A DNA stretch of 12,220 nucleotides from a virus (lineage: Duplodnaviria; Heunggongvirae; Uroviricota; Caudoviricetes), in the IMG/VR virus record IMGVR_UViG_2534681937_000031; one strand, given 5' to 3'. The notes below the pieces were generated by a model. That model saw only the letters and a program-made list of their open reading frames with translations. It was not told the DNA's origin and ran no database searches. This document shows, one piece after another, positions 1 to 12,220 of this stretch (within the stretch, counting starts at the first letter, position 1; each line of letters begins with the position of its first letter). Made by a program: the position numbers and the translations under genes.

Positions 1-1119
1 TCAAATAACCAACTTAACCCATTCCTGACCTCGAGTATCGTTATAGCGATCGGTGGTTGCCTGGACTTTATGTCCTAGTAATGTTTTTGTATCGATACCC
101 TGTGCACGGTACAGCCGTTCTGATAGAGAGCGTTGTTCATGAAATGTTGGCGGAGTTTTTCCTGCTGGTGGAATTACCCCAGCCAGATCCCGTGCTTTGG
201 CAAAGTAGTCGCTCAGGTTGTCTTTACTCATCGGCTTCGGTTGTTTCTGGTGCCGACTATGGATTAGATATGGACTTAATATTCTGTCTCGGCACCCATC
301 AATAACTTCTTTTAACGTTATCCCAATGGCATCACAGCGTAGTGTAAGCGGTAACGCCAGACGCATTCCGGTTTTTCCCTGGGTGATATGCAAGTGTTCG
401 TTCCACACATCTGAAAAACGCATGTGGCAAATGTCATCACGGCGCTGACCAGTAACAATCGCAAGAAGCATTGCGTTACGGATAAAGTGTTTTTCAGGCG
501 TTGCATTGTAAATTTTTTGCCAGTCTTCCATGGTGAGCCTGGCTCTGGTTACTTTAGGGATCGGTTTACGGGTAGCCTCCGGAGGATTCCATCCAGGAGG
601 AACTTCCCCTGCATGCTGTGCTTCTTTATAAATATCAACCCATAATCCACGATTTACTCTCGCTGTACTGACCATGTCTTTATCCAGCCACTCATCCAGT
701 ATTAATGCAAAGTCTCTTACTTCCAGTTCTTTCAATGGGTGGTTTCCCAGACGGGAAACCAGGTATGCAGCCATTCGAGTTTTTTCTTTGTGAGTTGTAG
801 CTGCAATATCTCCATTTTTCAGTCGCGTGTCCTGTATTTTCAGATATCGATCAACCCATGCCTTTAATCTGATACCCCGACGTTTTGTTGCTGACGGACT
901 TTCATCAATTTTGCGCATGAAATATTCAGCTTCTGCTGCAGCTATTCGCTGATTGGCTGTGGAAGCGATTTTTTCTGCCTTACCTTTGTCTGTTCCGAGT
1001 CCGTGAAATTTTCCAGTCACAGGATTTTTATACTGGTAGTAAACTCTGCCAGTTCTGCGATCAAACTTTTCGTAAAGACCGGCTACGTCAGTGCTGTTTT
1101 TTCGTGGCCTCGGTGACAT
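1..1119 (-). CDS. int: lambda-family tyrosine integrase (site-specific recombinase)
   Basis: 372-aa ORF; colinear similarity to phage lambda Int as recalled, including C-terminal catalytic region (AIVTGQRRDDICHMRFSDV, PPTFHEQRSLSERLY, GHK...DRY). Stop codon TGA is window bases 1-3, so the attachment site lies outside the window. AAGGAG SD about 10 nt upstream of ATG at 1119-1117. Confidence 0.93.
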   Translation of the reverse strand: MSPRPRKNSTDVAGLYEKFDRRTGRVYYQYKNPVTGKFHGLGTDKGKAEKIASTANQRIAAAEAEYFMRKIDESPSATKRRGIRLKAWVDRYLKIQDTRLKNGDIAATTHKEKTRMAAYLVSRLGNHPLKELEVRDFALILDEWLDKDMVSTARVNRGLWVDIYKEAQHAGEVPPGWNPPEATRKPIPKVTRARLTMEDWQKIYNATPEKHFIRNAMLLAIVTGQRRDDICHMRFSDVWNEHLHITQGKTGMRLALPLTLRCDAIGITLKEVIDGCRDRILSPYLIHSRHQKQPKPMSKDNLSDYFAKARDLAGVIPPAGKTPPTFHEQRSLSERLYRAQGIDTKTLLGHKVQATTDRYNDTRGQEWVKLVI

Positions 1120-1357
1120 GAGTTAAAATCTCCTTCAGTGCATCATCATCGCCAGTATGAATTTCCGGCGCAATTCCCGTTTCACCAGGCCCAACAAATA
1201 CTGCTCGGCGATCTATCAGCCAACGCCCACGAATTTTTTGTGGTCTTGGAACGATGTATCCTAGTTTTCCGTATTTCACCAGGGTAGTGTTTGTTATTGG
1301 GAGACTGAACCGTTTTGGTTTCCACTCGTCGAGCGTTATCAGGTACTGTTCGCTCAT
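1088..1357 (-). CDS. xis: excisionase (Xis-like DNA-binding protein)
   Basis: Small ORF immediately upstream of int, overlapping its start by 32 nt (typical xis-int arrangement). N-terminus YLITLDEW...RFSLP...YIVPRP resembles lambda Xis YLTLQEW...RPRSLE...IFPPP. ATG at 1357 has GGAG 8 nt upstream; the track start at 1366 is GTG. Confidence 0.7.
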   Translation of the reverse strand: MSEQYLITLDEWKPKRFSLPITNTTLVKYGKLGYIVPRPQKIRGRWLIDRRAVFVGPGETGIAPEIHTGDDDALKEILTHVTEATKKQH

Positions 1358-1418
1358 GGCTATCACTCCGGAACGCGCCAGTTGCAGAATATCAACGACA
1401 ACTGGCGACGGTTGAACA

Positions 1419-1856
1419 TTAAAAATCAGCCTGACTCGGGATCAGTTTTTGCCAGATAACTGAAACGTATTTTGCCTGGTAACGGGCGTCATCAAGTGCA
1501 TTATGGCGCTCACCTTCGAATGGAATAGCCGTTCTGGCATCGAAGTCTATGGCTTTCCCCAGCTCAACGATTGTGCGTACATCGCGATCGTTGTAGTAAC
1601 GCCACGGGCAGGGGATCCCCTGCCGTTCGTATGAACGGCGCAAAATCGTGTTGTCGAAGTTGGCTCCATTTCCCCAGACCTGAACAAAAAATTCACCGGA
1701 GTTTTCGTCGATAAATTCCCGCAATTGTAACAGTGCATCATCTAACGGGATTTCATCGGTCATAATGGCAGATTGCGCTTCGCGTGATTGCTTAAGCCAC
1801 CATTTAATGGTGTCCCTCGCCGTGTGCTTTCGTGTTGTGTGCCTGCTTTTTACCAC
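1419..1856 (-). CDS. DnaQ-like DEDDh 3'-5' exonuclease domain, apparently 5'-truncated (Exo II and Exo III motifs only)
   Basis: Translation contains Exo II-like WGNGANFDNTIL and Exo III-like HNALDDARYQAKY, but no Exo I (D-x-E) motif in the ORF or in any frame of the 240 bp upstream. Neither candidate start (GTG 1856, ATG 1763) has a convincing SD. Probably a gene remnant. Confidence 0.5.
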   Translation of the reverse strand: MVKSRHTTRKHTARDTIKWWLKQSREAQSAIMTDEIPLDDALLQLREFIDENSGEFFVQVWGNGANFDNTILRRSYERQGIPCPWRYYNDRDVRTIVELGKAIDFDARTAIPFEGERHNALDDARYQAKYVSVIWQKLIPSQADF

Positions 1857-1880
1857 GTCAGGCGAGGTGGTCCCCGTTAT

Positions 1881-1926
1881 TCCCCAACAACAAGGATCTT
1901 GTTAATCTGGATATCCCCAACAACAA
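1881..1926 (+). repeat. two 13-bp direct repeats TCCCCAACAACAA (1881-1893 and 1914-1926), 33 bp apart, in the 5' region of the 1941-2456 gene
   Basis: Exact repeat seen directly in the sequence; lies between the truncated exonuclease ORF and the GTG start at 1941. Confidence 0.6.
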
Positions 1927-1940
1927 TAAGAGTATTGAAT

Positions 1941-2456
1941 GTGATCGCTGAATTAACGGCAGCAATGACGGCTATTCGTGAAACCGCCCAGATTGCAAAA
2001 CTAATGAACGAGGCAAAAACTCAAGCTGAAGTAAATGCGGCTATTGGTGAACTGAACTCAAAGCTTGCATCTATTCAGCGCGAATGCGTGTCTCTCGTTG
2101 AGCTGGTGGGCACTTATCAAGAAATAAATGCTTCTCTCAAAGCTAAAATTGCAGAATTTGAAAACTTTGAGGCTCAGACGGAAGGTTATATCCTTAGCCA
2201 ACTTGAGTCGGGAACTTTTGTGTACTCGAAGGAGGTAACCGTGAACGGCGGCAGCATAATCATGCATCTTTGTCCAAAATGTTTTGGACAAAAGATAGTA
2301 TCGATACTTCAGCCATTCCCGGTTAGAGAATATGAATTTTTTCATAAAAGCAGGTGCCTGTACTGTGAAAATCAGTTTCTTATGAATAAAAATCCGGATT
2401 ACGTATCACCTCCATCTATTGAAGAGTTGGCCAGAAAACTGAACGGCAATCTGTAG
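1941..2456 (+). CDS. hypothetical protein, N-terminal coiled-coil plus C-terminal C4 zinc ribbon (CPKC...x20...CLYC); candidate moron/accessory gene
   Basis: Open frame 1788-2456; the upstream part overlaps the exonuclease ORF, so the likely start is GTG 1941 (AAGAG 10 nt upstream) or ATG 1965. About 171 aa. Visibly AT-rich relative to the replication region. Oriented opposite to the int-xis and early-left genes. No family recognised. Confidence 0.6.
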   Translation: MIAELTAAMTAIRETAQIAKLMNEAKTQAEVNAAIGELNSKLASIQRECVSLVELVGTYQEINASLKAKIAEFENFEAQTEGYILSQLESGTFVYSKEVTVNGGSIIMHLCPKCFGQKIVSILQPFPVREYEFFHKSRCLYCENQFLMNKNPDYVSPPSIEELARKLNGNL

Positions 2457-2495
2457 ATTTTTACTGTTATGGATATCCAGATTGTTAAAGAGCAT

Positions 2496-2519
2496 GCCGG
2501 ATGCTTGCTTGTGTCCGGC
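2496..2519. terminator. possible hairpin between convergent genes (GCCGGA-12 nt-TCCGGC)
   Basis: 6-bp inverted repeat with 12-nt loop in the 114-bp gap between the 3' ends of the 1941-2456 (+) and 2571-2801 (-) genes. No clear U-tract on either strand, so termination function is uncertain. Confidence 0.25.
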
Positions 2520-2570
2520 GCGTGTGCACCACTCTCCCCCCGTGGAGGATTCCTTAATTACCAGATTTCA

Positions 2571-2801
2571 TTAGTCAGAGTTTCTTGCTAACCAGCGACG
2601 CGCGCCAGATTCGGTTTTAAACGTTTTGCTTTTGGTATACGTCATCGCGGTGAACGTGCCGTCCTGGTTGGGAAACACGCCGCACACCAGAGATTCGTTG
2701 TTGCCAAGATCAAGAGTATCCATGCTGACCTCATATCCCCTTAACGCCGGGGTAGCGGAACAAAAACCTGCTGCATAGTTAAAGTTGAACCCTGCCGTCA
2801 T
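2571..2801 (-). CDS. small hypothetical protein, first gene downstream of the leftward early promoter
   Basis: 76-aa ORF with GAGG about 9 nt upstream of ATG at 2801-2799. Positioned like the small early-left genes of Rac-type prophages, but no family confidently recognised. Confidence 0.5.
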   Translation of the reverse strand: MTAGFNFNYAAGFCSATPALRGYEVSMDTLDLGNNESLVCGVFPNQDGTFTAMTYTKSKTFKTESGARRWLARNSD

Positions 2802-2901
2802 GTTCTTACGCCTCGGGCTGGCTACTTAATCCCTGACCACTGCCGGGTAACTCTAGGTATTGCCCTGTATTGTGTGGGACGGGATGGGTTGGTATGGGAA
2901 A

Positions 2902-2967
2902 ACTATAGGAAATGCCTAATTGCTTGTCAATAGGCTACGCCTAATGATTTGGGTGCGACCTAATAGG
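2902..2967 (-). promoter_or_regulatory. leftward early promoter (PL-like) with operator array OL
   Basis: Minus-strand -35 TTGACA (plus 2930-2925), 17-bp spacer, -10 TATAGT (plus 2907-2902). Palindromic operator-like sites TAGGAAATGCCTAA (2906-2919) and TAGGCTACGCCTAA (2931-2944), plus a partial CCTAATAGG (2959-2967), at about 25-bp spacing. Same half-site family as the racR-ydaS intergenic sites. Confidence 0.45.
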
Positions 2968-3038
2968 TGATGGTTTGTGGGAGAGGTAGTAGGAGTTAAC
3001 TAACGGGAACTAGGAATTTCCCGTCGGACCATATAAGT

Positions 3039-3515
3039 TTAAGTTCCTGTCTTGGTGATGTTCTGGCTTTTCCGTTTTGATTCTTGATTTTTCAGATAGT
3101 TAGCTACCTTCATTTCCATTGCGGCAATGTAGGCACGAACGTCATGATCAACCCAACTAGGCTCCGTAGCATTTCCAGATAAGAGGAAAGCCACAATTGC
3201 TCTTTTTTCATCAGAGGCGGCTTGATAAAGGCTGTTTATGTCTAAAAGTTCACTTTTTGTATCTGAAGTGGATGGGGTTGGTATGGGGTATTCGTTAAGC
3301 CCCCAATGCTCTGGACCAACCACATCAGAAAAGAAACGCCATAGTTCTGGAAGTTTGTCTTTACTTATCGAACCTTTCTTAATCCAGTCATGGATTGATG
3401 GTGGTTGGACTTTGAAATGACGTGCGATTTCCGCCTTTGATTTGACGGCTCCTGATGCAATTTTTTTGTTAATGGCCTGCTCTATCGCTCGGCCTAAGTC
3501 TTTACCACTAAGCAT
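3039..3515 (-). CDS. racR: prophage repressor, RacR-like HTH protein
   Basis: 158-aa ORF with N-terminal HTH (AEIARHFKVQPPSIHDWIKKGSIS); divergent from a Cro-like gene across an operator-rich gap; AGGAG 8 nt upstream of ATG at 3515. Length and context match E. coli Rac prophage RacR as recalled. Confidence 0.8.
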   Translation of the reverse strand: MLSGKDLGRAIEQAINKKIASGAVKSKAEIARHFKVQPPSIHDWIKKGSISKDKLPELWRFFSDVVGPEHWGLNEYPIPTPSTSDTKSELLDINSLYQAASDEKRAIVAFLLSGNATEPSWVDHDVRAYIAAMEMKVANYLKNQESKRKSQNITKTGT

Positions 3516-3543
3516 TGCTTAATAGTCTCCTATGCGCATCGCA

Positions 3544-3612
3544 TTAGGCAATGCCTACTCTCGAAGCGTTAGGCATAGCCTATTGACAATTGCATTAGGC
3601 TAAGCCTAATAT
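3544..3612 (+). promoter_or_regulatory. rightward early promoter (PR-like) with three operators (OR)
   Basis: Three palindromes at about 26-bp centre spacing: TTAGGCAATGCCTA (3544-3557), TAGGCATAGCCTA (3570-3582), TTAGGCTAAGCCTAA (3595-3609). -35 TTGACA 3583-3588, 18-bp spacer, -10 TAATAT 3607-3612. The third operator overlaps the -10. Confidence 0.55.
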
Positions 3613-3639
3613 TATTGTGTGTTTTTTGGAGTTCATTCG

Positions 3640-3963
3640 ATGAAAAAAGATAACTATTCATTCAAACGAGCTTGTGCTGTTGTCGGTGGGCAATCAGCAA
3701 TGGCTAGGCTTTTAGGTGTATCTCCTCCAAGCGTAAATCAATGGATCAAAGGTGTACGTCAGTTGCCTGCTGAGAGATGTCCTGCGATTGAACGAGCAAC
3801 AAAAGGTGGTGTCCTGTGTGAAGAACTTCGTCCTGATGTTGATTGGACATACTTACGACGCTCGTCATGTTATTCGCAGAATATGTCGATGAAGCAACCA
3901 AATGACGAAAACGATCATACCCGAAGCATCAAGAGGCAAATGATTCATGAAAATCAAACATGA
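3640..3963 (+). CDS. ydaS: Cro-like HTH regulator, YdaS-like
   Basis: ATG 3640 with GGAG 8 nt upstream. The ORF-track start at 3619 (GTG) lies at the predicted transcription start and is rejected. HTH motif QSAMARLLGVSPPSVNQWIKG. Sits immediately rightward of the repressor, as in the Rac racR-ydaS-ydaT arrangement. Confidence 0.75.
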   Translation: MKKDNYSFKRACAVVGGQSAMARLLGVSPPSVNQWIKGVRQLPAERCPAIERATKGGVLCEELRPDVDWTYLRRSSCYSQNMSMKQPNDENDHTRSIKRQMIHENQT

Positions 3964-4372
3964 GCACATCCGCATGGCGATGAATGCCTGGGCATATCCT
4001 GATGGTGAGAAAGTTCCTGCAGCTGAAATAGCCCGGACTTATTTCGAACTGGGGATGACGTTCCCGGAACTGTACGACGACAGCCATCCGGAAGCCCTGG
4101 CTCGTAATACCCAGAAAATTTTCCGTTGGCTGGATAAAGACACCCCTGATGCTGTTGAAAAAATGCAGGCTCTGTTACCGGCGATCGAAAAGGCAATGCC
4201 GCCTCTGCTGGTGGCCCGTATGCGCAGTCACAGCTCTGAATATTACCGTGAGATCGTCGAACGGAGGGATCGGCTGGTGAAAGATGTGGATGATTTTGTC
4301 GCAGCGGCGATCGCCTGGGGCACCCTGACTAACAGTGGGGGTCAGCCTGGTAATGCTGTTGTCGTGCATTGA
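3947..4372 (+). CDS. ydaT: YdaT-like protein (partner of YdaS in Rac-type immunity regions)
   Basis: 141-aa ORF overlapping the ydaS 3' end by 17 nt; AAGAGG 10 nt upstream of ATG 3947. Length and position match Rac YdaT (140 aa) as recalled. Confidence 0.75.
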   Translation: MKIKHEHIRMAMNAWAYPDGEKVPAAEIARTYFELGMTFPELYDDSHPEALARNTQKIFRWLDKDTPDAVEKMQALLPAIEKAMPPLLVARMRSHSSEYYREIVERRDRLVKDVDDFVAAAIAWGTLTNSGGQPGNAVVVH

Positions 4373-4440
4373 CCAACAATATTCATGCCGGATTTCTTCC
4401 GGATGTTCGAGGGTAAAGTTCGGTATCAGATGAGGTGAGT

Positions 4441-5478
4441 ATGGCTAATGCCTGGCTCAGATTGTGGCATGACATGCCAAATGATCCCAAATGGCGAACC
4501 ATTGCCAGGGTCTCAGGACAGCCAATCGCAACAGTGATGGCGGTGTATATCCACCTTCTGGTGAGTGCGTCACGAAATGTCACGAAATGTCACGGCGAGT
4601 CACTACGTGGTCACATTGATGTCACGACGGAAGATTTAGCAAGTGCGCTTGATGTGACGGAAGACGTGATTGATTCAATTTTGCATGCAATGCAGGGGCG
4701 AGTTCTGGATGGCGATCTTATTTCCGGATGGGAAAAACGCCAGGTGATGAAGGAGGATAACGGTAATGTTTCGCAAACCGCAAAATCCCCGGCAGAGCGC
4801 AAGAGAGCGCAGCGGGAGCGGGAAAGACTGCGGGAGCAGAACACTGATTGTCACGATGAGTCACGACGCGTCACGCATATGTCACGACAAGTCACGACAG
4901 ATACAGATACAGATAAAGAATTAAACCCCACACATAACGCGCGCATGCGCGAGAGTGCTCCAGCCAGTGAGTCGAATGGCGCGCCGTTGCAGACAGCAGA
5001 ACCTGAATACCCGGATGGCCTGAGCGAACCGATCGGGAAATTTCCGATGACTGGTGTCTGGCGGCCGTCGCTGGATTTTCGACAGCGGGCTGCATTGTGG
5101 GGTATGGCTCTGCCTGAGCCTGAGTTTACACCTGCTGAGCTTGCCGCATTCCGGGATTACTGGATGGCGGAGGGGAAGGTTTTCACGCAGGTTCAGTGGG
5201 AGCAGAAATTTGCCCGTCACGTGCAGCACGTCAGGGCACAGGTAAAACCAGTCAGCAAGGGGGTAAGCCATGCAGCACCAGGTGGCACCGCATCACGGGC
5301 AGTTCAGGAAATTCGGGCAGCACGTGAACAGTGGGAACGTGAAAACGGATTTATCAGCAACGGAAACGGCCTGGAAGCTGTGGGAACTTATGGGGGAGGT
5401 GTATTCGAACCGCTGGACCCAGAAGAACGGGGCTGCGCCGTCGAAGCTCTGGATTGCTCAGATTGGCGCGATGACTGA
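4441..5478 (+). CDS. replication initiator, O-like/YdaU-type, with DnaT-like C-terminal region; contains the iteron-type origin
   Basis: GAGG upstream of ATG 4441. Two clusters of GTCACG iterons lie inside the coding sequence, as ori-lambda lies inside O. The 3' 209 nt overlap the next gene out of frame. Confidence 0.65.
   Translation: MANAWLRLWHDMPNDPKWRTIARVSGQPIATVMAVYIHLLVSASRNVTKCHGESLRGHIDVTTEDLASALDVTEDVIDSILHAMQGRVLDGDLISGWEKRQVMKEDNGNVSQTAKSPAERKRAQRERERLREQNTDCHDESRRVTHMSRQVTTDTDTDKELNPTHNARMRESAPASESNGAPLQTAEPEYPDGLSEPIGKFPMTGVWRPSLDFRQRAALWGMALPEPEFTPAELAAFRDYWMAEGKVFTQVQWEQKFARHVQHVRAQVKPVSKGVSHAAPGGTASRAVQEIRAAREQWERENGFISNGNGLEAVGTYGGGVFEPLDPEERGCAVEALDCSDWRDD
4569..4626 (+). 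repeat. iteron cluster 1: six GTCAC(G/T/A) repeats at 10-11 bp periodicity
   Basis: Direct reading: GTCACGAAAT GTCACGAAAT GTCACGGCGA GTCACTACGTG GTCACATTGAT GTCACG. Confidence 0.75.
4850..4918 (+). repeat. iteron cluster 2: five GTCACG repeats at 10-11 bp periodicity, followed by ATACAG x3
   Basis: Direct reading: GTCACGATGA GTCACGACGC GTCACGCATAT GTCACGACAA GTCACGACAG ATACAG ATACAG ATAAAG. Lies about 224 bp downstream of cluster 1. Confidence 0.75.
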
Positions 5479-5932
5479 ACAGCAAATCCGGCAGGTCTGC
5501 CGTCAGTGCATGGACCGCTGCCGGGCGGGTGAAACGTGGCCTCCGGACCTGGCTGAGTTTGTGGCGTTGATTTCGGAGAGCGGGGCAAATCCATTTGGCC
5601 TGACGGTGGATGCCGTGATGGAGGAGTACCGTCGCTGGAGGAATGAATCCTGGCGGTACGACGGGAGTGATAAATACCCGTGGCCACAGCCGGTGCTGTA
5701 CCACATTTGCCTCGAGATGCGTGACAGAGGGATTGAGCGGCAGATGACGGAAGGTGAGTTAAAACGACTTGCAGAACGGCAACTGACGAAATGGGCAAAG
5801 CAAGTTGGTAACGGGATGAGTATTCCCCCGATCCGGAGACAACTCGCATCGCCGAAGTGCCCGCAAGGGCCAACGCCAATTGAATTACTGAAACAGGAAT
5901 ACGAGCGCCGGAAGGCGGCTGGTTTTGTTTGA
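5270..5932 (+). CDS. replication protein P-like (putative DnaB helicase loader)
   Basis: C-terminal half resembles lambda P as recalled (KYPWPQP...LYHI, MTEGELKRLAERQL, GMSIPPIRRQL versus lambda SYPWKSN...HYWL, LTDAELRRKAADEL, GEAIPEPVKQL). Start uncertain: ATG 5270 has AAGGGGG SD; alternatives are ATG 5390 and ATG 5471 (ATGA overlap with the upstream stop). Confidence 0.6.
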   Translation: MQHQVAPHHGQFRKFGQHVNSGNVKTDLSATETAWKLWELMGEVYSNRWTQKNGAAPSKLWIAQIGAMTEQQIRQVCRQCMDRCRAGETWPPDLAEFVALISESGANPFGLTVDAVMEEYRRWRNESWRYDGSDKYPWPQPVLYHICLEMRDRGIERQMTEGELKRLAERQLTKWAKQVGNGMSIPPIRRQLASPKCPQGPTPIELLKQEYERRKAAGFV

Positions 5933-5965
5933 ATCTGAGAAACGATTTTGTCGGAGGAAATTTTA

Positions 5966-6682
5966 ATGGAAACCGTATCTGACGCACTGAAAGCACTGAA
6001 AAGAGCCTCTTCACATGTGGTGGCAGCTCGCCTTGGAATTAGTCGTGAAGAGGCTGTCAACGAACTGTGGAAACTGAAACGCCGTGGAGAAGCGGATAAC
6101 AAGGGGGCGATATGGTGGCTGACTCAGGCTGGTGAAAGTGAACCGGTGTCACCGGTACCGAAAGTGACGGCGCAAATGCTGACAGAGGCGATTGAACAAC
6201 ATGGCCCACAAACGGCGGATGAACTGGCATTGATGTTCGGAATTACCTCCCGCCGGGCGAATTCATCGCTGGCAATGGCAATCAGCAAAGGGTGTCTGAT
6301 TCGCGTGAATCAGGATGGTAAATTTCGTTACTGCATACCGGGCGTTGATTTACCGGCAGAGCCGAAAGCAGCATCCGTAGCTGAAACGGAGGGTAAAGCC
6401 CTTCCTCAGCCAGCTGGTGTTGCGTTACCAGTCCAGGAAACGGCTGCACAGGAAGAAATTAAAACAGAAGCGGTGGAGGACATTGTGAAGTTGCAGCAAT
6501 CGTTCACTGAAGCGAAAGCAGATGACCTGATTCTACCATCGCTGCATGTGGCTAACCGCGAGCTGCGCCGGGCGAAAAGTAATGTTCAGAAGTGGGAGCG
6601 AGTCTGTGCTGCGCTACGGGAACTGAACAAACACAGGGATATTCTCCGGGATATTACCGCCACCAGAGAGCAGCAGCGGTGA
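5966..6682 (+). CDS. hypothetical protein with two winged-helix-like segments and a C-terminal coiled coil
   Basis: GGAGG 9 nt upstream of ATG 5966. First gene of a translationally coupled block. Confidence 0.55.
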
Positions 6683-6996
6683 GTGGCTGGAAGAAGTGGC
6701 GCTGGGCTGAAATCCTGATACTCCGGCAGTGTGCGGGAACGATGAGAGTCGAAAGCATCGGTTATCTGATTGGCCGTAGTGAGTCAGCCGTCAGGACGAA
6801 AGCGCGGGAACTGGGTATCAGCATGATGTTACGGGGTGATTATCACCAGTCAGCCAAATGTTCACAGCGTGATATTGAGCTGGCGTGGCAACTGCATCAG
6901 CGTGGTGTACCCCGACGGGAAATTGCCGAAAAGTTTGGGATGAAGTTGGGCGCAGTGAATAACTACGTTTATTTCGACAGGAGGGTTCAGGAGTGA
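6679..6996 (+). CDS. hypothetical small DNA-binding-like protein (two HTH-like repeats)
   Basis: GTG 6679 overlaps the upstream stop (GTGA); alternative ATG 6742. Repeats [16 protein letters not shown] and [15 protein letters not shown]. Confidence 0.45.
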
Positions 6997-7295
6997 GGGT
7001 GAGGGTTTATATCGCCGGTCCGATGACGGGATATGAAAATTTTAACCGCGAGGCATTTCACAAAACGGAAGAGGTGCTGAAACGGGAAGGGCATACCGTT
7101 TTAAACCCGGCAGTACTTCCGGACGGGCTGACTCAGCCACACTACATGGATATTTGCATGGCAATGCTCCGTTGCGTGGATGCGGTTTACATGCTGAAAG
7201 GCTGGCAGCAGTCGGCAGGTGCAGGGGCTGAGCTGGCACTGGAGGAGAAACCGGGCCATGCGGTGATTTTTCAGGAGGTGGGCAGTGAATATTGA
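6993..7295 (+). CDS. DUF4406-like protein (nucleoside 2-deoxyribosyltransferase-like fold)
   Basis: YIAGPMTG...NFN...VLNPA...GWQQSAGA motif pattern typical of the phage DUF4406 family as recalled; GTG start overlapping the upstream stop; GGAGG 8 nt upstream. Confidence 0.6.
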   Translation: MRVRVYIAGPMTGYENFNREAFHKTEEVLKREGHTVLNPAVLPDGLTQPHYMDICMAMLRCVDAVYMLKGWQQSAGAGAELALEEKPGHAVIFQEVGSEY

Positions 7296-7602
7296 CCCGG
7301 CGATAACGATTGATATGGCCCTGAACGCCGGCCTGGCACTTCTTGGTTATTTCTACATTATGTTCTGCAGCGGACGATGGCTGTCACTGTTGTTCATGAA
7401 AAAATGGAATAAACGCCGTAAGCAGGAGCAACGCCAGAAGGCAATGGATGCATTTTTCGAAGCCTTCGGAATTGACGGCATGGAACCAGGGGATCCAGCT
7501 CGCGCAATCAGCAGAGGGGGTGTAGTAATCCTTGTATATCGGAGTGAAGAGAAAAATGACGATCACAAAACAACGTGTAGAAGAAATCATATCCCGCATT
7601 GA
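7285..7602 (+). CDS. small membrane protein (one N-terminal TM helix, basic C-terminal tail)
   Basis: GTG 7285 with AGGAGG 6 nt upstream; hydrophobic segment ALNAGLALLGYFYIMFCSGRWLSLLF; 3' end overlaps the next gene by 47 nt. Confidence 0.45.
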   Translation: MNIDPAITIDMALNAGLALLGYFYIMFCSGRWLSLLFMKKWNKRRKQEQRQKAMDAFFEAFGIDGMEPGDPARAISRGGVVILVYRSEEKNDDHKTTCRRNHIPH

Positions 7603-7873
7603 AATGTATGGACATGGTGCAGGGTATATCGCAGACGAGGTTAATGATCTGGCTATACTGGCGCTGAATTTATCAAATATCGCGAACCTGAAGCGATACG
7701 AGCTTGATATGGGAGGTTGCGACTCGTGCGGTCAGGATTGTGGCGCTGATATGACTGAAGATCCTGATGGTGATTATGTCCTGTTTGATGACGTGGTTAA
7801 GTTGTTTGAATTTGATACAACCACTCAAAAGTTAGAAATCCCGGCAAAGGAGGCAGCCAGTGGGCAAGATTGA
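7556..7873 (+). CDS. hypothetical acidic protein with a Cys cluster (CDSCGQDCG)
   Basis: ATG 7556 with GGAG about 11 nt upstream; the track start at 7532 has no SD. Confidence 0.5.
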   Translation: MTITKQRVEEIISRIEMYGHGAGYIADEVNDLAILALNLSNIANLKRYELDMGGCDSCGQDCGADMTEDPDGDYVLFDDVVKLFEFDTTTQKLEIPAKEAASGQD

Positions 7874-8297
7874 CTATCAGGCACTGCGTGAGGCAGCACA
7901 AAACTATCAATCGACGCTGGCGTGGTATCAGGCTACCCCGGACAGCCCAAATGCTGAACGGGATTGTGATGCGGCTCTTGCTGCGTTTAAGCGTCACATC
8001 CGTCATCGGGAAGCGGATATTATCGCTGATTTGCTGGATGGACTGGAAGAAGCAAAATCACAACTCAACGAGCAGCGTGAGTATTACGAAGGCGTTATCT
8101 CTGATGGGAGCAAGCGTATTGCTGAACTGGAAGCGCGGGAAGTTCAATTACCGACTCGCTACGACCTTCGATATGGACACCCGATAAATGCAGATGAGCG
8201 ACATGTCATGATACCTAAAGAAAATGGCAGTTGGCTTTACCTGATTGACCTAGAACACGCATTACGCGTCGCTGGCATTCGCATCAAAGGAGAGTGA
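7860..8297 (+). CDS. hypothetical coiled-coil protein (weak Ead/Ea22-like N-terminal resemblance)
   Basis: GTG 7860 with AAGGAGG 6 nt upstream; overlaps the upstream stop. The N-terminal DYQALREAAQ resemblance is tentative. Confidence 0.5.
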   Translation: MGKIDYQALREAAQNYQSTLAWYQATPDSPNAERDCDAALAAFKRHIRHREADIIADLLDGLEEAKSQLNEQREYYEGVISDGSKRIAELEAREVQLPTRYDLRYGHPINADERHVMIPKENGSWLYLIDLEHALRVAGIRIKGE

Positions 8298-8298
8298 G

Positions 8299-8490
8299 AT
8301 GAACGGACAAATATCAATTGTTCGACCAGGAGCATGTGACGATCGCGAAATACGAATGATTATTCGTCTGGCGATGGGGAAAACAATAACTGCTCTCATT
8401 ACTCCAGAAAATCTCGCATTAGCATTAACAGGAAAGTCAGACATGCCAGTAGAGCTAAAGCTGCGAAATGTTGAGATTAAGGTGAAATAG
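8299..8490 (+). CDS. small hypothetical protein
   Basis: ATG 8299 one nt after the upstream stop; AGGAG upstream. Confidence 0.45.
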   Translation: MNGQISIVRPGACDDREIRMIIRLAMGKTITALITPENLALALTGKSDMPVELKLRNVEIKVK

Positions 8491-8492
8491 CT

Positions 8493-9050
8493 ATGACCAC
8501 TATTACCAAAGATCGACTGCTGACAATCCAGCATTGGCGCGAAACATACGGACCGGGTAGCAACGTTGTGCTTCCAGCAGAAGAAGCGGAAGAGCTGGCA
8601 CGGATTGCGCTGGCATCACTGGCAGCAGTATCGGATGAACGAGCAGCCTATGAATTATTTATGGAGAAGCGTTTCGGGGAATCTGTAGATCGCCGCAGAG
8701 CAAAAAATGGCGATAGAGAATACATGGCATGGGATATGGCGCTTGGCTGGATTATCTGGTGTCACCGCGCCGCCATGCTTCAGGCTGGAAACTTTCGGGA
8801 AAATAAGGGTTCGTCAACCAATAATTTTCGGATAATCTCGGAAACGTCAACCAACTCTCCGGCAATCCCTGATGAGGTGTTGTCCGCAATCCTGAAGGTC
8901 GCCAGGCTTCGTGCAGATTTCGATGCTTCTGAAGTGGACAGGCGAGGTATCGGTAGTTGTCTGGATGAGGCCGAGCAAGAACTTATCGTTACCATTAACG
9001 AATACGCCAGTCAGATCGCAGTAGAAGCGACACAGGGGGAGAACCAATGA
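8493..9050 (+). CDS. hypothetical protein
   Basis: 185-aa ORF, ATG 8493 two nt after the upstream stop; its stop overlaps the start of a 25-codon ORF (ATGA). Confidence 0.55.
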   Translation: MTTITKDRLLTIQHWRETYGPGSNVVLPAEEAEELARIALASLAAVSDERAAYELFMEKRFGESVDRRRAKNGDREYMAWDMALGWIIWCHRAAMLQAGNFRENKGSSTNNFRIISETSTNSPAIPDEVLSAILKVARLRADFDASEVDRRGIGSCLDEAEQELIVTINEYASQIAVEATQGENQ

Positions 9051-9124
9051 GCCGGCCAGATGCATTTGCAGGCGTTGCTATAGCTATTGCTTTTCTAGTA
9101 TATGTTATTTGTCGGTGGGGGTAA
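9047..9124 (+). CDS. candidate small hydrophobic peptide (25 aa, MSRPDAFAGVAIAIAFLVYVICRWG)
   Basis: Not in the ORF track (under 60 aa). ATG overlaps the stop of the 8493-9050 gene; single predicted TM helix. Confidence 0.3.
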   Translation: MSRPDAFAGVAIAIAFLVYVICRWG

Positions 9125-9159
9125 AAACGTTCGCCGGGATTCACACCAAGGGAGGGAAT

Positions 9160-9264
9160 ATGTCGGATGATATTTCACTGGTAATGGAAGGCGCTCTGGC
9201 TGTTATTGCTGTTGTGGGTGTTTACTGCCTGGTTGTGTTTTTGATGGAGCGCCTGGGGAACTGA
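9160..9264 (+). CDS. candidate small hydrophobic peptide (34 aa, MSDDISLVMEGALAVIAVVGVYCLVVFLMERLGN)
   Basis: Not in the ORF track. Strong SD AAGGGAGGG just upstream of ATG 9160; single predicted TM helix; followed by a palindrome. Confidence 0.4.
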   Translation: MSDDISLVMEGALAVIAVVGVYCLVVFLMERLGN

Positions 9265-9507
9265 ATTCATTCCGTATGGGAATTCCCATATCGGGCAAAA
9301 CGGTTTGCTGTAAAGCGAGAGTTAAGTAGAATTGCTGCGGGTGCTTGAGGCTGTCTGCCTCGGGCATGCCACCGTAAGGCAGACAGAGAAAAGCCCCAGT
9401 TAACATTACGCGTCCTGCAAGACGCTTAACATTAATCTGAGGCCCAATCTATGCTTCACAAACGTAGGTTAGCCTCTTACGCGCCGAAAGGCAAGGAGAA
9501 GCAGGTT
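9265..9507. other. hok leader/regulatory region (expected site of mRNA fold-back elements and any Sok-like antisense RNA)
   Basis: Contains a 22-bp near-palindrome CCGTATGGGAATTCCCATATCGG (9272-9294) and the hairpin CTGTCTGCC-N18-GGCAGACAG (9351-9386). An in-frame upstream ATG at 9451 with GAGG SD precedes hok. Antisense RNA not located. Confidence 0.35.
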
Positions 9508-9663
9508 ATGAAGCAGCAAAAGGCGATGTTAATCGCCCTGATCGTCATCTGTTTAACCGTCATAGTGACGGCACTGGTAACGAGGAAAGACCTCTGCGAG
9601 GTACGAATCCGAACCGGCCAGACGGAGGTCGCTGTCTTCACAGCTTACGAACCTGAGGAGTAA
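9508..9663 (+). CDS. hokD: Hok/Gef-family type I toxin (HokD/RelF-like, 51 aa)
   Basis: Translation MKQQKAMLIALIVICLTVIVTALVTRKDLCEVRIRTGQTEVAVFTAYEPEE matches the Hok family and, as recalled, E. coli HokD. AAGGAG 9 nt upstream of ATG. Confidence 0.9.
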   Translation: MKQQKAMLIALIVICLTVIVTALVTRKDLCEVRIRTGQTEVAVFTAYEPEE

Positions 9664-9731
9664 GAGACCAGGCGGGGGAGAAATCCCTCGCCACCGCTGA
9701 TGTGTCAGGCATCCTCAACGCACCCGCACTT

Positions 9732-9759
9732 AACCCGCTTCGGCGGGTTTTGTTTTTTC
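9732..9759 (+). terminator. rho-independent terminator (AACCCGC-TTCG-GCGGGTT followed by TTTGTTTTTTCT)
   Basis: 7-bp GC-rich stem, tetraloop and U-rich tract about 70 nt after the hok stop. Confidence 0.75.
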
Positions 9760-9779
9760 TGGTCGTTCTGGTTTACAAT
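9750..9779 (+). promoter_or_regulatory. possible promoter restarting rightward transcription (-35 TTGTTT, -10 TACAAT)
   Basis: TACAAT at 9774-9779 with TTGTTT 18 bp upstream; overlaps the terminator U-tract. Confidence 0.3.
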
Positions 9780-9830
9780 CCATCCGTCAGCCTGAACAAC
9801 TGGCACCTGCTGCGCCAGCAGAGAAAACAG

Positions 9831-10109
9831 ATGGCGCACGATACCAAATTTTACAATTCGGATAACTCTGCCGCCCCTGCCAGCAGGCACGGGCGGCGTT
9901 CTCATGCATTCAAATCTGACTGGTATCAGCACGACCCCTGCACCGAAGAACAGGCTGAATGGCTGATTCAGTGTTACCGCAGGCGCGGATACGAGGTTAA
10001 GAAAGCCCTCAGTCTCGATTATCGTCACTGGATAATCTCCGTCAGGCTTCCTTACTCCGAACGCCCACCGCGTCCGTCCCGCACATTCCAGCAACGCATC
10101 TGGAGGTAA
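9831..10109 (+). CDS. hypothetical protein, possibly Rem-like (Qin prophage context)
   Basis: The track ORF 9702-10109 spans the terminator, so the start is moved to ATG 9831 (92 aa). Position between hok and a DUF968 gene mirrors the Qin hokD-rem-ydfU order as recalled. Confidence 0.45.
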   Translation: MAHDTKFYNSDNSAAPASRHGRRSHAFKSDWYQHDPCTEEQAEWLIQCYRRRGYEVKKALSLDYRHWIISVRLPYSERPPRPSRTFQQRIWR

Positions 10110-10110
10110 C

Positions 10111-11115
10111 GTGCGGGTATTACTTCGACCTGTTCTGGTACCGGAACTCGGGCTGGTGATCGTTAAGCCGGGCCGTGAATCCATGCCGGTATTCCACAAT
10201 ACCCGGGTACTGGTGGAGCCGGAACCGAAAAGCATGCGTAATCTGCCGTCCGGGGTCGTTCCTGCCGTTCGCCAGCCGCTGGCGGAGGATAAATCATTAC
10301 TGCCATTTTTCAGCGACGAACGAGTGATTCGTGCTGCTGGTGGCGCTGGCGCACTGTCTGACTGGTTACTGCGCCATGTTAAATCCTGCCAGTGGCCACA
10401 CGGCGATTATCACCACAGTGAAACCGTCATTCACCGTTATGGTACCGGCGCAATGGTGTTGTGCTGGCACTGCGACAACCAGTTGCGTGACCAGACCTCC
10501 GAATCACTTGAGCAACTTGCTCACCAAAACCTGTCAGCATGGATGATTGACGTCATTCGTCACGCAATGAATGGCACACAGGAGCGTGAATTATCGCTGG
10601 CTGAATTATCCTGGTGGGCGGCCTGCAATCAGGTGGTGGATGCACTACCTGAGGCAGTAGCGCGTCGTTCGCTGGGATTACCAGCGGAAAAAATCCGCTC
10701 CGTATACCGTGAGAGTGACATCGTACCGGGAGAACAGACAGCCATCAGCATACTGAAGCAGCGCACAAAAAATATTGCGCTGCCACTTCACGTCCACCAG
10801 CAACAAAATCCACCACAGAAAAAAACGGTTGTCAGTATCGCCGTTGATCCGGAGTCTCCTGAATCGTTCATGAGGCGGCCTAAACGTTGCCGCTGGGTTA
10901 ATGAGAAATACACGCGCTGGGTAAAGACACAGCCGTGTGCGTGTTGTGGTAAGCCTGCTGACGATCCGCATCACCTGATTGGTCATGGTCAGGGGGGAAT
11001 GGGGACAAAGGCCCACGATATTTTCACGCTACCGTTGTGCCGGGTAGCACCACAACGAACTTCATGCAGACCCGACTGGAGTTTGAGAAAAAGTACGGCT
11101 CTCAGATTGAGTTAA
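10111..11115 (+). CDS. DUF968/YdfU-like protein with HNH-like Cys/His motifs; 3' end appears frameshifted
   Basis: GTG 10111 overlapping the upstream stop. C-terminal motifs CACCGKPADDPHHLIGHGQGG...LPLCR, with HHNELHADP then EFEKKYGSQIELIF... continuing in the two other frames up to TAA 11160-11162, just before the rusA RBS. Confidence 0.65.
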   Translation: MRVLLRPVLVPELGLVIVKPGRESMPVFHNTRVLVEPEPKSMRNLPSGVVPAVRQPLAEDKSLLPFFSDERVIRAAGGAGALSDWLLRHVKSCQWPHGDYHHSETVIHRYGTGAMVLCWHCDNQLRDQTSESLEQLAHQNLSAWMIDVIRHAMNGTQERELSLAELSWWAACNQVVDALPEAVARRSLGLPAEKIRSVYRESDIVPGEQTAISILKQRTKNIALPLHVHQQQNPPQKKTVVSIAVDPESPESFMRRPKRCRWVNEKYTRWVKTQPCACCGKPADDPHHLIGHGQGGMGTKAHDIFTLPLCRVAPQRTSCRPDWSLRKSTALRLS

Positions 11116-11174
11116 TTTTTCGTTTTCTTGATCACGCCTTTGCGACTGGCGTGCTCGGGTAAAAGAGGTGACTG

Positions 11175-11534
11175 ATGCTCATAGATTTGGTTTTACCTTA
11201 CCCGCCGACGGTGAACACCTACTGGCGACGTCGTGGCAGCACATATTTTGTATCAAAAGCCGGTGAGCGTTATCGCCGGGCTGTGGCGCTTATTGTTCGC
11301 CAGCAGCGGCTGAAATTAAGCCTGTCCGGAAGGCTGGCGATAAAGATTATTGCCGAGCCACCGGATAAGCGCCGCCGTGACCTGGACAATATTCTGAAAG
11401 CGCCGCTGGATGCGCTGACGCATGCGGGGTTGCTAATGGACGATGAGCAGTTTGATGAAATCAATATTGTGCGCGGTCAGCTCGTTCCTGGTGAGCGGCT
11501 GGGGATAAAAATCACAGAACTGGAGTGCGCATGA
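11175..11534 (+). CDS. rusA: crossover junction endodeoxyribonuclease RusA (Holliday junction resolvase)
   Basis: 119-aa ORF with the RusA-family pattern (YPPTVNTYWRRRG...PDKRRRDLDNILKAPLDALT...LMDDEQ); GAGG 7 nt upstream of ATG. Confidence 0.88.
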   Translation: MLIDLVLPYPPTVNTYWRRRGSTYFVSKAGERYRRAVALIVRQQRLKLSLSGRLAIKIIAEPPDKRRRDLDNILKAPLDALTHAGLLMDDEQFDEINIVRGQLVPGERLGIKITELECA

Positions 11535-12220
11535 ATAACCACTATTTACAGTTTGTGCGTGAGCTGCTCATTATCGCTACCGCCGATTTGAGTGGGGCAA
11601 CAAAAGGTCAGCTTGAAGCCTGGCAGGAGAATGCCATGTTCGATACAGGGCGTTACAGGCGAAAAAAAATCCGGTACCGCGATGAAGTGACTGGAAAAAT
11701 GATAACGCGGGATAATCCACCAATCCCGGGAAAGCAATCGCTGGCGAAGGTGACGTCAATTCCTCTGGTCAGTCCGGTTGAGTTTTCGACATCATCGTGG
11801 CGGCGGGCTGTTCTGTCTCTTGAAGAACATCATAAAGCCTGGTTGTTGTGGTGTTACAGCGGGAGTATTTGTTGGGAATATCAGATCGCGATAACACAGT
11901 GGGCGTGGAATGAATTTAATACTCAATCCGGTACCAGAAAAATTGCAGGGAAAACGCAGGAACGCCTGAAAAAATTAATCTGGCTGGCGGCGCAGGCAGT
12001 AAAAGCAGAACTTTTTGGTGGGGAAGGTTATGAATACAAGGAGCTGGCATTACTGGTGGGAGTGACAACTAAAAACTGGTCCAAAACATTTACTCGTCAC
12101 TGGGTTGCAATGAAACACATTTTTCACCGACTGGATAGTGAGGCTTTATTGTTTGTAATGAGAACGCGTTCAAAACAAAAGGCGGCATTTTCAAAGCAAA
12201 GTGTTGCAAAAGTAGATTGA
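11531..12220 (+). CDS. putative late-gene antiterminator (Q-like, QuuQ/YdfT-type)
   Basis: ATG 11531 overlaps the rusA stop (ATGA). Position immediately after rusA at the right end of the early region is the canonical Q location; family assigned by context only. Stop is the last three bases of the window. Confidence 0.5.
   Translation: MNNHYLQFVRELLIIATADLSGATKGQLEAWQENAMFDTGRYRRKKIRYRDEVTGKMITRDNPPIPGKQSLAKVTSIPLVSPVEFSTSSWRRAVLSLEEHHKAWLLWCYSGSICWEYQIAITQWAWNEFNTQSGTRKIAGKTQERLKKLIWLAAQAVKAELFGGEGYEYKELALLVGVTTKNWSKTFTRHWVAMKHIFHRLDSEALLFVMRTRSKQKAAFSKQSVAKVD

Follow-up and report, generated by a model that had tools for sequence, protein, structure and literature searches.

A 3' remnant of a large ExoVIII-type exonuclease gene, probably left by a single deletion, in the early-left region of the Sp6 prophage of Escherichia coli O157:H7

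The DNA analysed here (the window; 12,220 nucleotides of the virus record IMGVR_UViG_2534681937_000031 of IMG/VR) opens with the integrase gene of a prophage of the potC site. Both this gene (positions 1 to 1119, minus strand; ORF list and annotation) and the excisionase gene, xis (1088-1366, minus strand; PF07825 and annotation; start placed at 1357 by PGAP), are intact. Immediately upstream of xis lies the reading frame that is the subject of this study. It occupies positions 1419-1856 of the minus strand, with a GTG start codon at 1856, an internal ATG at 1763 and a TAA stop codon at 1419-1421, and is open over 145 codons. The next gene, on the plus strand, encodes a protein of 171 amino acids (1941-2456), identified from a PHROG match and from the annotation as phrog_1244 and ECs_1504. 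It is followed by the DUF1391 gene (ydfA-like; 2571-2801, minus strand; PF07151, E = 6.6e-30), which heads the leftward early operon and for which PGAP gives a shorter form (2571-2723). A consensus scan detected a pL-like sigma-70 promoter at 2902-2930 on the minus strand (TTGACA, 17 nt, TATAGT; 11 of 12 matches), between DUF1391 and the gene for a RacR-type repressor (3039-3515, minus strand). Judging from the lambdoid layout, this promoter would transcribe DUF1391, the antisense strand of the 171-aa gene, the exonuclease frame, xis and int. A simple terminator scan of the interval from 1300 to 3100 yielded no terminators.

Positions 1-8868 of the window are 99.9% identical to the genome of E. 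coli O157:H7 strain Sakai, beginning with the integrase of the element annotated as "prophage Sp6; lambda-like phage" beside potC, which is the location reported for Sp6 (PMC8190617). The exonuclease frame corresponds to ECs_1503 of Sakai Sp6. There, and at the same potC-side locus of EDL933 and other O157:H7 strains, the junction described below and the neighbours (ECs_1501-1506) are as in the window. Further to the right (8869-12220) identity falls to about 91% against both Sakai Sp6 and the Sp6 prophage of TR01, so that the source of the window is a mosaic variant of Sp6; this has no effect on the findings concerning the exonuclease gene. The rusA gene, which in TR01 has been cut short and joined to a fragment of DUF6645, is an intact 119-aa ORF in the window (11175-11534). 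An RNA matching the sok antitoxin (9339-9513, plus strand; Rfam RF01794, 114.9 bits) forms part of a hok/sok-type toxin-antitoxin locus, and hokD is annotated in the corresponding region of TR01.

A first-pass annotation, made from the letters of this DNA alone, had read 1419-1940 as a DnaQ-like exonuclease gene lacking its 5' part. The truncation is borne out by the present analysis, within different limits. Translation of the frame yields the Exo II motif, VWGNGANFDNTIL, and the Exo III motif, ERHNALDDARYQA, both of which had been recognised at the time. The frame was aligned with the corresponding domain of an intact homolog and with stand-alone homologs of 183-193 aa from Klebsiella, Salmonella, Raoultella, Citrobacter and E. 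coli. In this alignment the aspartate of Exo II (N-x-x-x-F-D; GNGANFD in the frame) is invariant, as are the histidine and the second aspartate of Exo III (H-x4-D; HNALDD(ARY)). The Pfam model PF16473 (Rv2179c-like 3'-5' exoribonuclease domain) matches the frame with 159 bits (cut-off, 27; E = 1.2e-46), which reflects true homology and not chance. The match covers positions 47-177 only of the 177-position profile, the N-terminal quarter of the domain being absent.

The missing quarter includes Exo I (D-x-E), the source of two of the four metal-binding carboxylates. No residues of the frame align at this place. A motif search for D-x-E was negative for the frame itself and for all three minus-strand reading frames of the interval 2180-1750, and tblastn with the 813-aa intact homolog as query detected no other significant piece of exonuclease in the window; the lack of Exo I noted in the first pass is thus seen by motif scan, tblastn and alignment alike. 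All of the aligned stand-alone homologs open with (MN)HLMIDLETMG, that is, with Exo I, and the homology of the frame to the family begins only at RDTIKWW. Codons 1-13 of the frame (1817-1856, minus strand; GTG, then VKSRHTTRKHTA) align with nothing in the exonuclease family. They are antisense to the region preceding the 171-aa gene; the DNA under them is colinear with the spacer between dicB and the 171-aa gene in two prophages that carry the exonuclease gene intact (OkiPb01714 and TB182A; see below). The 13-codon extension is not derived from the exonuclease gene. Exonuclease-derived DNA stops at 1816, and positions 1817-1940, which had been counted as part of the exonuclease gene, are the upstream region of its neighbour. 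The remnant proper (1419-1816, minus strand, stop codon included) corresponds to residues ~682 to 813 of the 813-aa intact protein.

The intact gene adjoins xis in phage vB_EcoS-640R1, where it is 2442 bp long and encodes 813 aa (positions 4120-6561, minus strand, of locus L001); in E. coli OkiPb01714 it is 2544 bp long (positions 5586-8129, minus strand, of locus L004). Like the remnant, intact exonucleases of this so-called ExoVIII type (813-847 aa; for example, URC10031.1 of vB_EcoS-640R1 and WP_137535577.1) are encoded beside xis, and their last ~132 residues are identical or nearly identical to it; the window is without the counterpart of residues 1-681, comprising a RecE-like N-terminal region, an acidic linker and the Exo I segment. 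In the 813-aa protein, a RecE-type N-terminal domain (PF06630, residues 57-189) is followed by the long acidic linker and by a complete PF16473 domain (residues 632-803, profile positions 2-177). The RecE model PRK09709 of NCBIfam matches an 847-aa relative over positions 1-602 of 877, with 872 bits, which is below the cut-off of 1269. The C-terminal nuclease of RecE (603-877) remains unmatched in this relative, and the window remnant shows no RecE match at all. The presence of PF16473 combined with a match to RecE that is confined to the N-terminal region indicates that the ExoVIII-type proteins carry a DEDDh nuclease instead of that of RecE. They are thus chimeras, in which the N-terminal region of RecE (~600 positions) is joined to a nuclease of the Rv2179c/DexA-like DEDDh family.

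Two known groups of enzymes are therefore relevant to the remnant. With RecE (exodeoxyribonuclease VIII) of the Rac prophage, the intact relatives have the N-terminal region in common, but the DEDDh domain stands where RecE has its nuclease, and none of the RecE-like part is left in the window. With the DEDDh exonucleases resembling Rv2179c and T4 DexA (PF16473; the stand-alone proteins of 183-193 aa and the structure 8KEL), the remnant shares the fold family as well as Exo II and Exo III; unlike the remnant, full-length members all start with Exo I (MIDLETMG). The entry 8KEL ("exodeoxyribonuclease", 227 aa) is the closest solved structure, by sequence, to the intact domain (E = 5e-8). The literature found on Rv2179c is exclusively mycobacterial and has no bearing on the phage proteins. 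The intact exonuclease had no match in PADLOC. No RecT-like partner is annotated near the intact genes, so that the label "recombination system" is a putative one for these loci.

Comparison with prophages in which the gene is intact defined the breakpoint. Window positions 1-1816 are 99.8% identical in DNA sequence to phage vB_EcoS-640R1 and colinear with the 3' part of its intact gene; past 1816 this identity ends abruptly, with none on the other side. The junction (1816/1817) joins codon 682 of the exonuclease gene, on the left, to a point in the intergenic region 124 bp before the start of the 171-aa gene, on the right. Both flanks are contiguous with a single intact layout, that of the OkiPb01714 prophage, which occupies the same potC site and has the order int, xis, exonuclease, DUF1482, dicB, a spacer of ~0.5 kb, 171-aa gene, DUF1391 and repressor. 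The order of genes is identical in a prophage of the O55:H7 strain TB182A (locus L005) that adjoins tRNA-Ser. Window 3-1816 corresponds to positions 4170-5983 of the OkiPb01714 locus and window 1817-2770 to positions 9001-9952, both with 96% identity. In the window, 5983 is joined to 9001; hence 5984-9000, or 3017 bp, are missing, with no bases common to the two sides of the break. Comparison with TB182A, to which window 1815-2761 shows 99% identity, gives a gap of ~2.9 kb and an overlap of no more than 2 bp (CC) between the flanks at the joint. A joint that is blunt or involves 2 bp points to illegitimate recombination.

The block missing from the window contains ~2.1 kb of the 5' part of the exonuclease gene (~681 of 813 codons), DUF1482 (ydfD-like), dicB, whose product inhibits cell division, and ~400 bp of spacer. 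The lost piece of the exonuclease is thus most of a large protein with RecE-like and DEDDh parts, and not the N-terminus (~50 codons) of a small DnaQ-like enzyme. The first-pass annotation had also proposed that the rest of the early-left recombination module was lost. This is correct to the extent that other early-left genes (DUF1482 and dicB) have gone, but the loss of a recombination module is not supported, as the annotations of the intact relatives (640R1, OkiPb01714 and TB182A) include no annealing gene of the RecT/Bet type. A search of the block in the intact relative for the DicF small RNA gave no Rfam match at gathering score. With a laxer E-value threshold, the sole RNA match was a sub-threshold one to STnc100 (33 bits versus a gathering score of 47; E = 2.5e-5), situated within the deleted block just upstream of dicB (positions 8563-8780, minus strand, of the OkiPb01714 locus).

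What remains of the spacer in the window (1817-1940, plus strand, from alignment with the OkiPb01714 and TB182A loci) amounts to 124 of ~530 bp. In the two intact loci the spacer is conserved on both sides of the break point, which places the break within ordinary intergenic DNA. Convincing support for a break directed to a module boundary was not obtained, the OkiPb01714 and TB182A loci being homologous on either side, with only a variable patch of ~25 bp to the left of the break. The spacer remnant carries two perfect copies of TCCCCAACAACAA, at 1881-1893 and 1914-1926, preceding the 171-aa gene, and this gene is bracketed by an imperfect inverted repeat of 26 nt (1904-1929 and 2458-2483; 81% complementary). 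These repeated sequences could be operator-like sites or the ends of a module. The 171-aa protein itself has an N-terminal half resembling a coiled coil and a pair of cysteine motifs, CPKC...CLYC, towards its C-terminus. Distant relatives are found in phages HK620 and HK630 (HkaP) and in the Pseudomonas phages DMS3, D3112 (orf25), JBD30 and MP38; no match was obtained for the 171-aa gene in PADLOC or NCBIfam.

The first-pass annotation had attributed the truncation to an inserted cassette (1941-2456), whose arrival would have removed the 5' portion of a DnaQ-like exonuclease gene and, with it, what else there was of the recombination module. The gene does have attributes that one might associate with such an element: it is oriented opposite to the early-left operon, has no known function, is flanked by the inverted repeat and, in phage PhiR29_1, is found elsewhere (between yfdP and cI), like a movable module, which it may well be. 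Yet in OkiPb01714 and TB182A it coexists with an intact exonuclease gene, DUF1482 and dicB, and the intact joint from dicB to the 171-aa gene occurs in 162 complete genomes. Such a distribution identifies the gene as a normal resident of this prophage layout and not an insertion. Moreover, the break lies 124 bp upstream of the gene, in a conserved spacer that continues leftward in the intact loci, and coincides neither with the inverted repeat (1904-1929) nor with the edge of the PhiR29_1 homology, which begins at 1833, 16 bp to the right of the break. The size of the truncated gene (~2.4-2.5 kb) is also at odds with a small DnaQ-like gene. As a cause of the truncation, insertion is accordingly very improbable; the 171-aa gene was there before the truncation and independently of it.

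The degree of identity of the two flanks raises a different question, namely whether the junction arose between two lambdoid phages or prophages, one of the potC type resembling 640R1 and the other bearing the module of the 171-aa gene and DUF1391. The left flank is 99.8% identical to 640R1, whose genes from dicB to pL differ and do not include the 171-aa gene. The 99% match of the right flank is to the module of the O55:H7 prophage adjoining tRNA-Ser, at another attachment site, and the only prophage that shares the attachment site and has both flanks is 96% identical on each. None of the genomes compared combines two flanks of at least 99% identity with an intact gene, and O157 genomes contain several paralogs, the number of places that match being 3-7 in each genome. 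Such differences in identity are, however, to be expected from lambdoid mosaicism and sparse sampling. Deletion within a layout like that of OkiPb01714 is favoured, since it requires one step, and is more parsimonious for that reason, and since the order of genes in the flanks is exactly that of OkiPb01714. A joint between two phages is thus considered unlikely. For the exonuclease gene, the outcome is the same whether the deletion occurred in place or the joint was made between phages.

We consider it highly probable (roughly nine chances in ten) that 1419-1816 is a pseudogene, the 3' end of a large ExoVIII-type gene of the Sp6 potC prophage, left by one deletion of ~2.9-3.0 kb. The limits of homology, the breakpoint, the intact layouts, the distribution and the annotation status of the remnant are established by the present analysis. 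The ancestor would have been a Rac/Qin-like lambdoid prophage with an exonuclease of 813-847 aa and a layout like that of OkiPb01714, the intact state presumably being the earlier one. A single event of illegitimate recombination, involving 0-2 bp of microhomology, would have taken the first ~681 codons together with the start of the gene and its ribosome-binding site and, in the same step, DUF1482, dicB and ~400 bp of the spacer that precedes the 171-aa gene.

The absence of proper initiation signals fits this picture. The original start codon was situated ~2 kb within the lost block. As the first-pass annotation had observed, neither of the candidate starts that are left, GTG1856 and ATG1763, is preceded by a Shine-Dalgarno (SD) sequence: no 4-mer of AGGAGGT is present within 25 nt upstream of either one, whereas GAGG precedes the ATG of the intact homologs. 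The energy of the duplex with the anti-SD sequence is -0.2 kcal/mol for ATG1763, as against -6.3 for the intact starts. The value of -5.7 obtained for GTG1856 comes from a run of GGGG located 16-19 nt upstream, beyond the usual SD spacing.

It might nonetheless be asked whether the short frame is a genuine gene, expressed as a stand-alone truncated protein of the exonuclease fold with a non-catalytic role. The 145 codons are open, and the frame lies on the probable pL transcript. The original annotation of Sakai includes a CDS of 114 aa starting at ATG1763, and the PHROG family phrog_8783, also of 114 aa, matches residues 32-145, which is the exact span of that call (ECs_1503). The sequence is, in addition, identical in all of the carriers listed (60 of 267). 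This identity reflects the clonality of O157:H7, not selection. The frame lacks an SD at both starts and the N-terminal quarter of the domain with Exo I; its first 13 codons are antisense spacer, and PGAP calls it a pseudogene. Nor does a conserved short form appear among the relatives: homologs of ~60% identity are 183-193 aa long and have Exo I. Two short entries were checked in context and discarded as conserved short homologs. One of them (P0013, 134 aa) is an artefact, lying 46 bp from a contig end; the other (P0022, 114 aa) is half of a gene that has been split, preceded by a 55-aa piece of the same domain. The chances that the frame is a genuine gene seem slight in the extreme.

On the preferred reading of the remnant as a pseudogene, it is very probably non-functional, although it may still be passively transcribed from the leftward early promoter, in the direction of xis and int. 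We infer that it has no exonuclease activity, given the loss of the two carboxylates of Exo I and of the first quarter of the domain. There is perhaps a very small chance that low-level translation from ATG1763 still yields the 114-aa product of ECs_1503, which would then act in a non-catalytic manner; it might, for instance, bind to the ends of nucleic acids or hinder the intact exonuclease paralogs of the other O157 prophages. In a milder variant of the same idea, the deletion itself would have been selected, as it removed dicB and the nuclease, which are potentially harmful on derepression, while int and xis were kept.

Of 5426 complete E. coli genomes, 267 contain the junction, and the 60 carriers listed out of these 267 show 100% identity across it. 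All of the listed carriers whose serotype is named are O157 or O157:H7, including Sakai, EDL933, EC4115, TW14359, Xuzhou21 and 86-24. The junction is an old clonal marker of the O157:H7 lineage. The truncated state of the gene is already on record. PGAP annotates a pseudogene, "3'-5' exonuclease; incomplete; missing N-terminus", at the equivalent of window 1419-1820, and the general recombination function of Sp6 was scored "D" (defective) by Asadulghani et al. 2009 (PMC2669165), who found the ExoVIII-type system to be intact only in Sp10. According to the same work, Sp6 is excisable and transferable, and its repressor is without the peptidase domain needed for SOS induction (PMC2669165).

A truncated remnant at this locus is therefore known from annotation and literature as a defective gene, and is ordinary. 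The value of the present findings lies mainly in correct annotation, the truncation being one of many decay events in the pool of O157:H7 prophages. For the proteins of the family, the name "exodeoxyribonuclease VIII" derives from the N-terminal region alone, and the nuclease domain is a 3'-5' nuclease of the DEDDh type. For Sp6, the analysis supplies the exact breakpoint and the size of the early-left deletion, and the junction could serve as a marker of the lineage.
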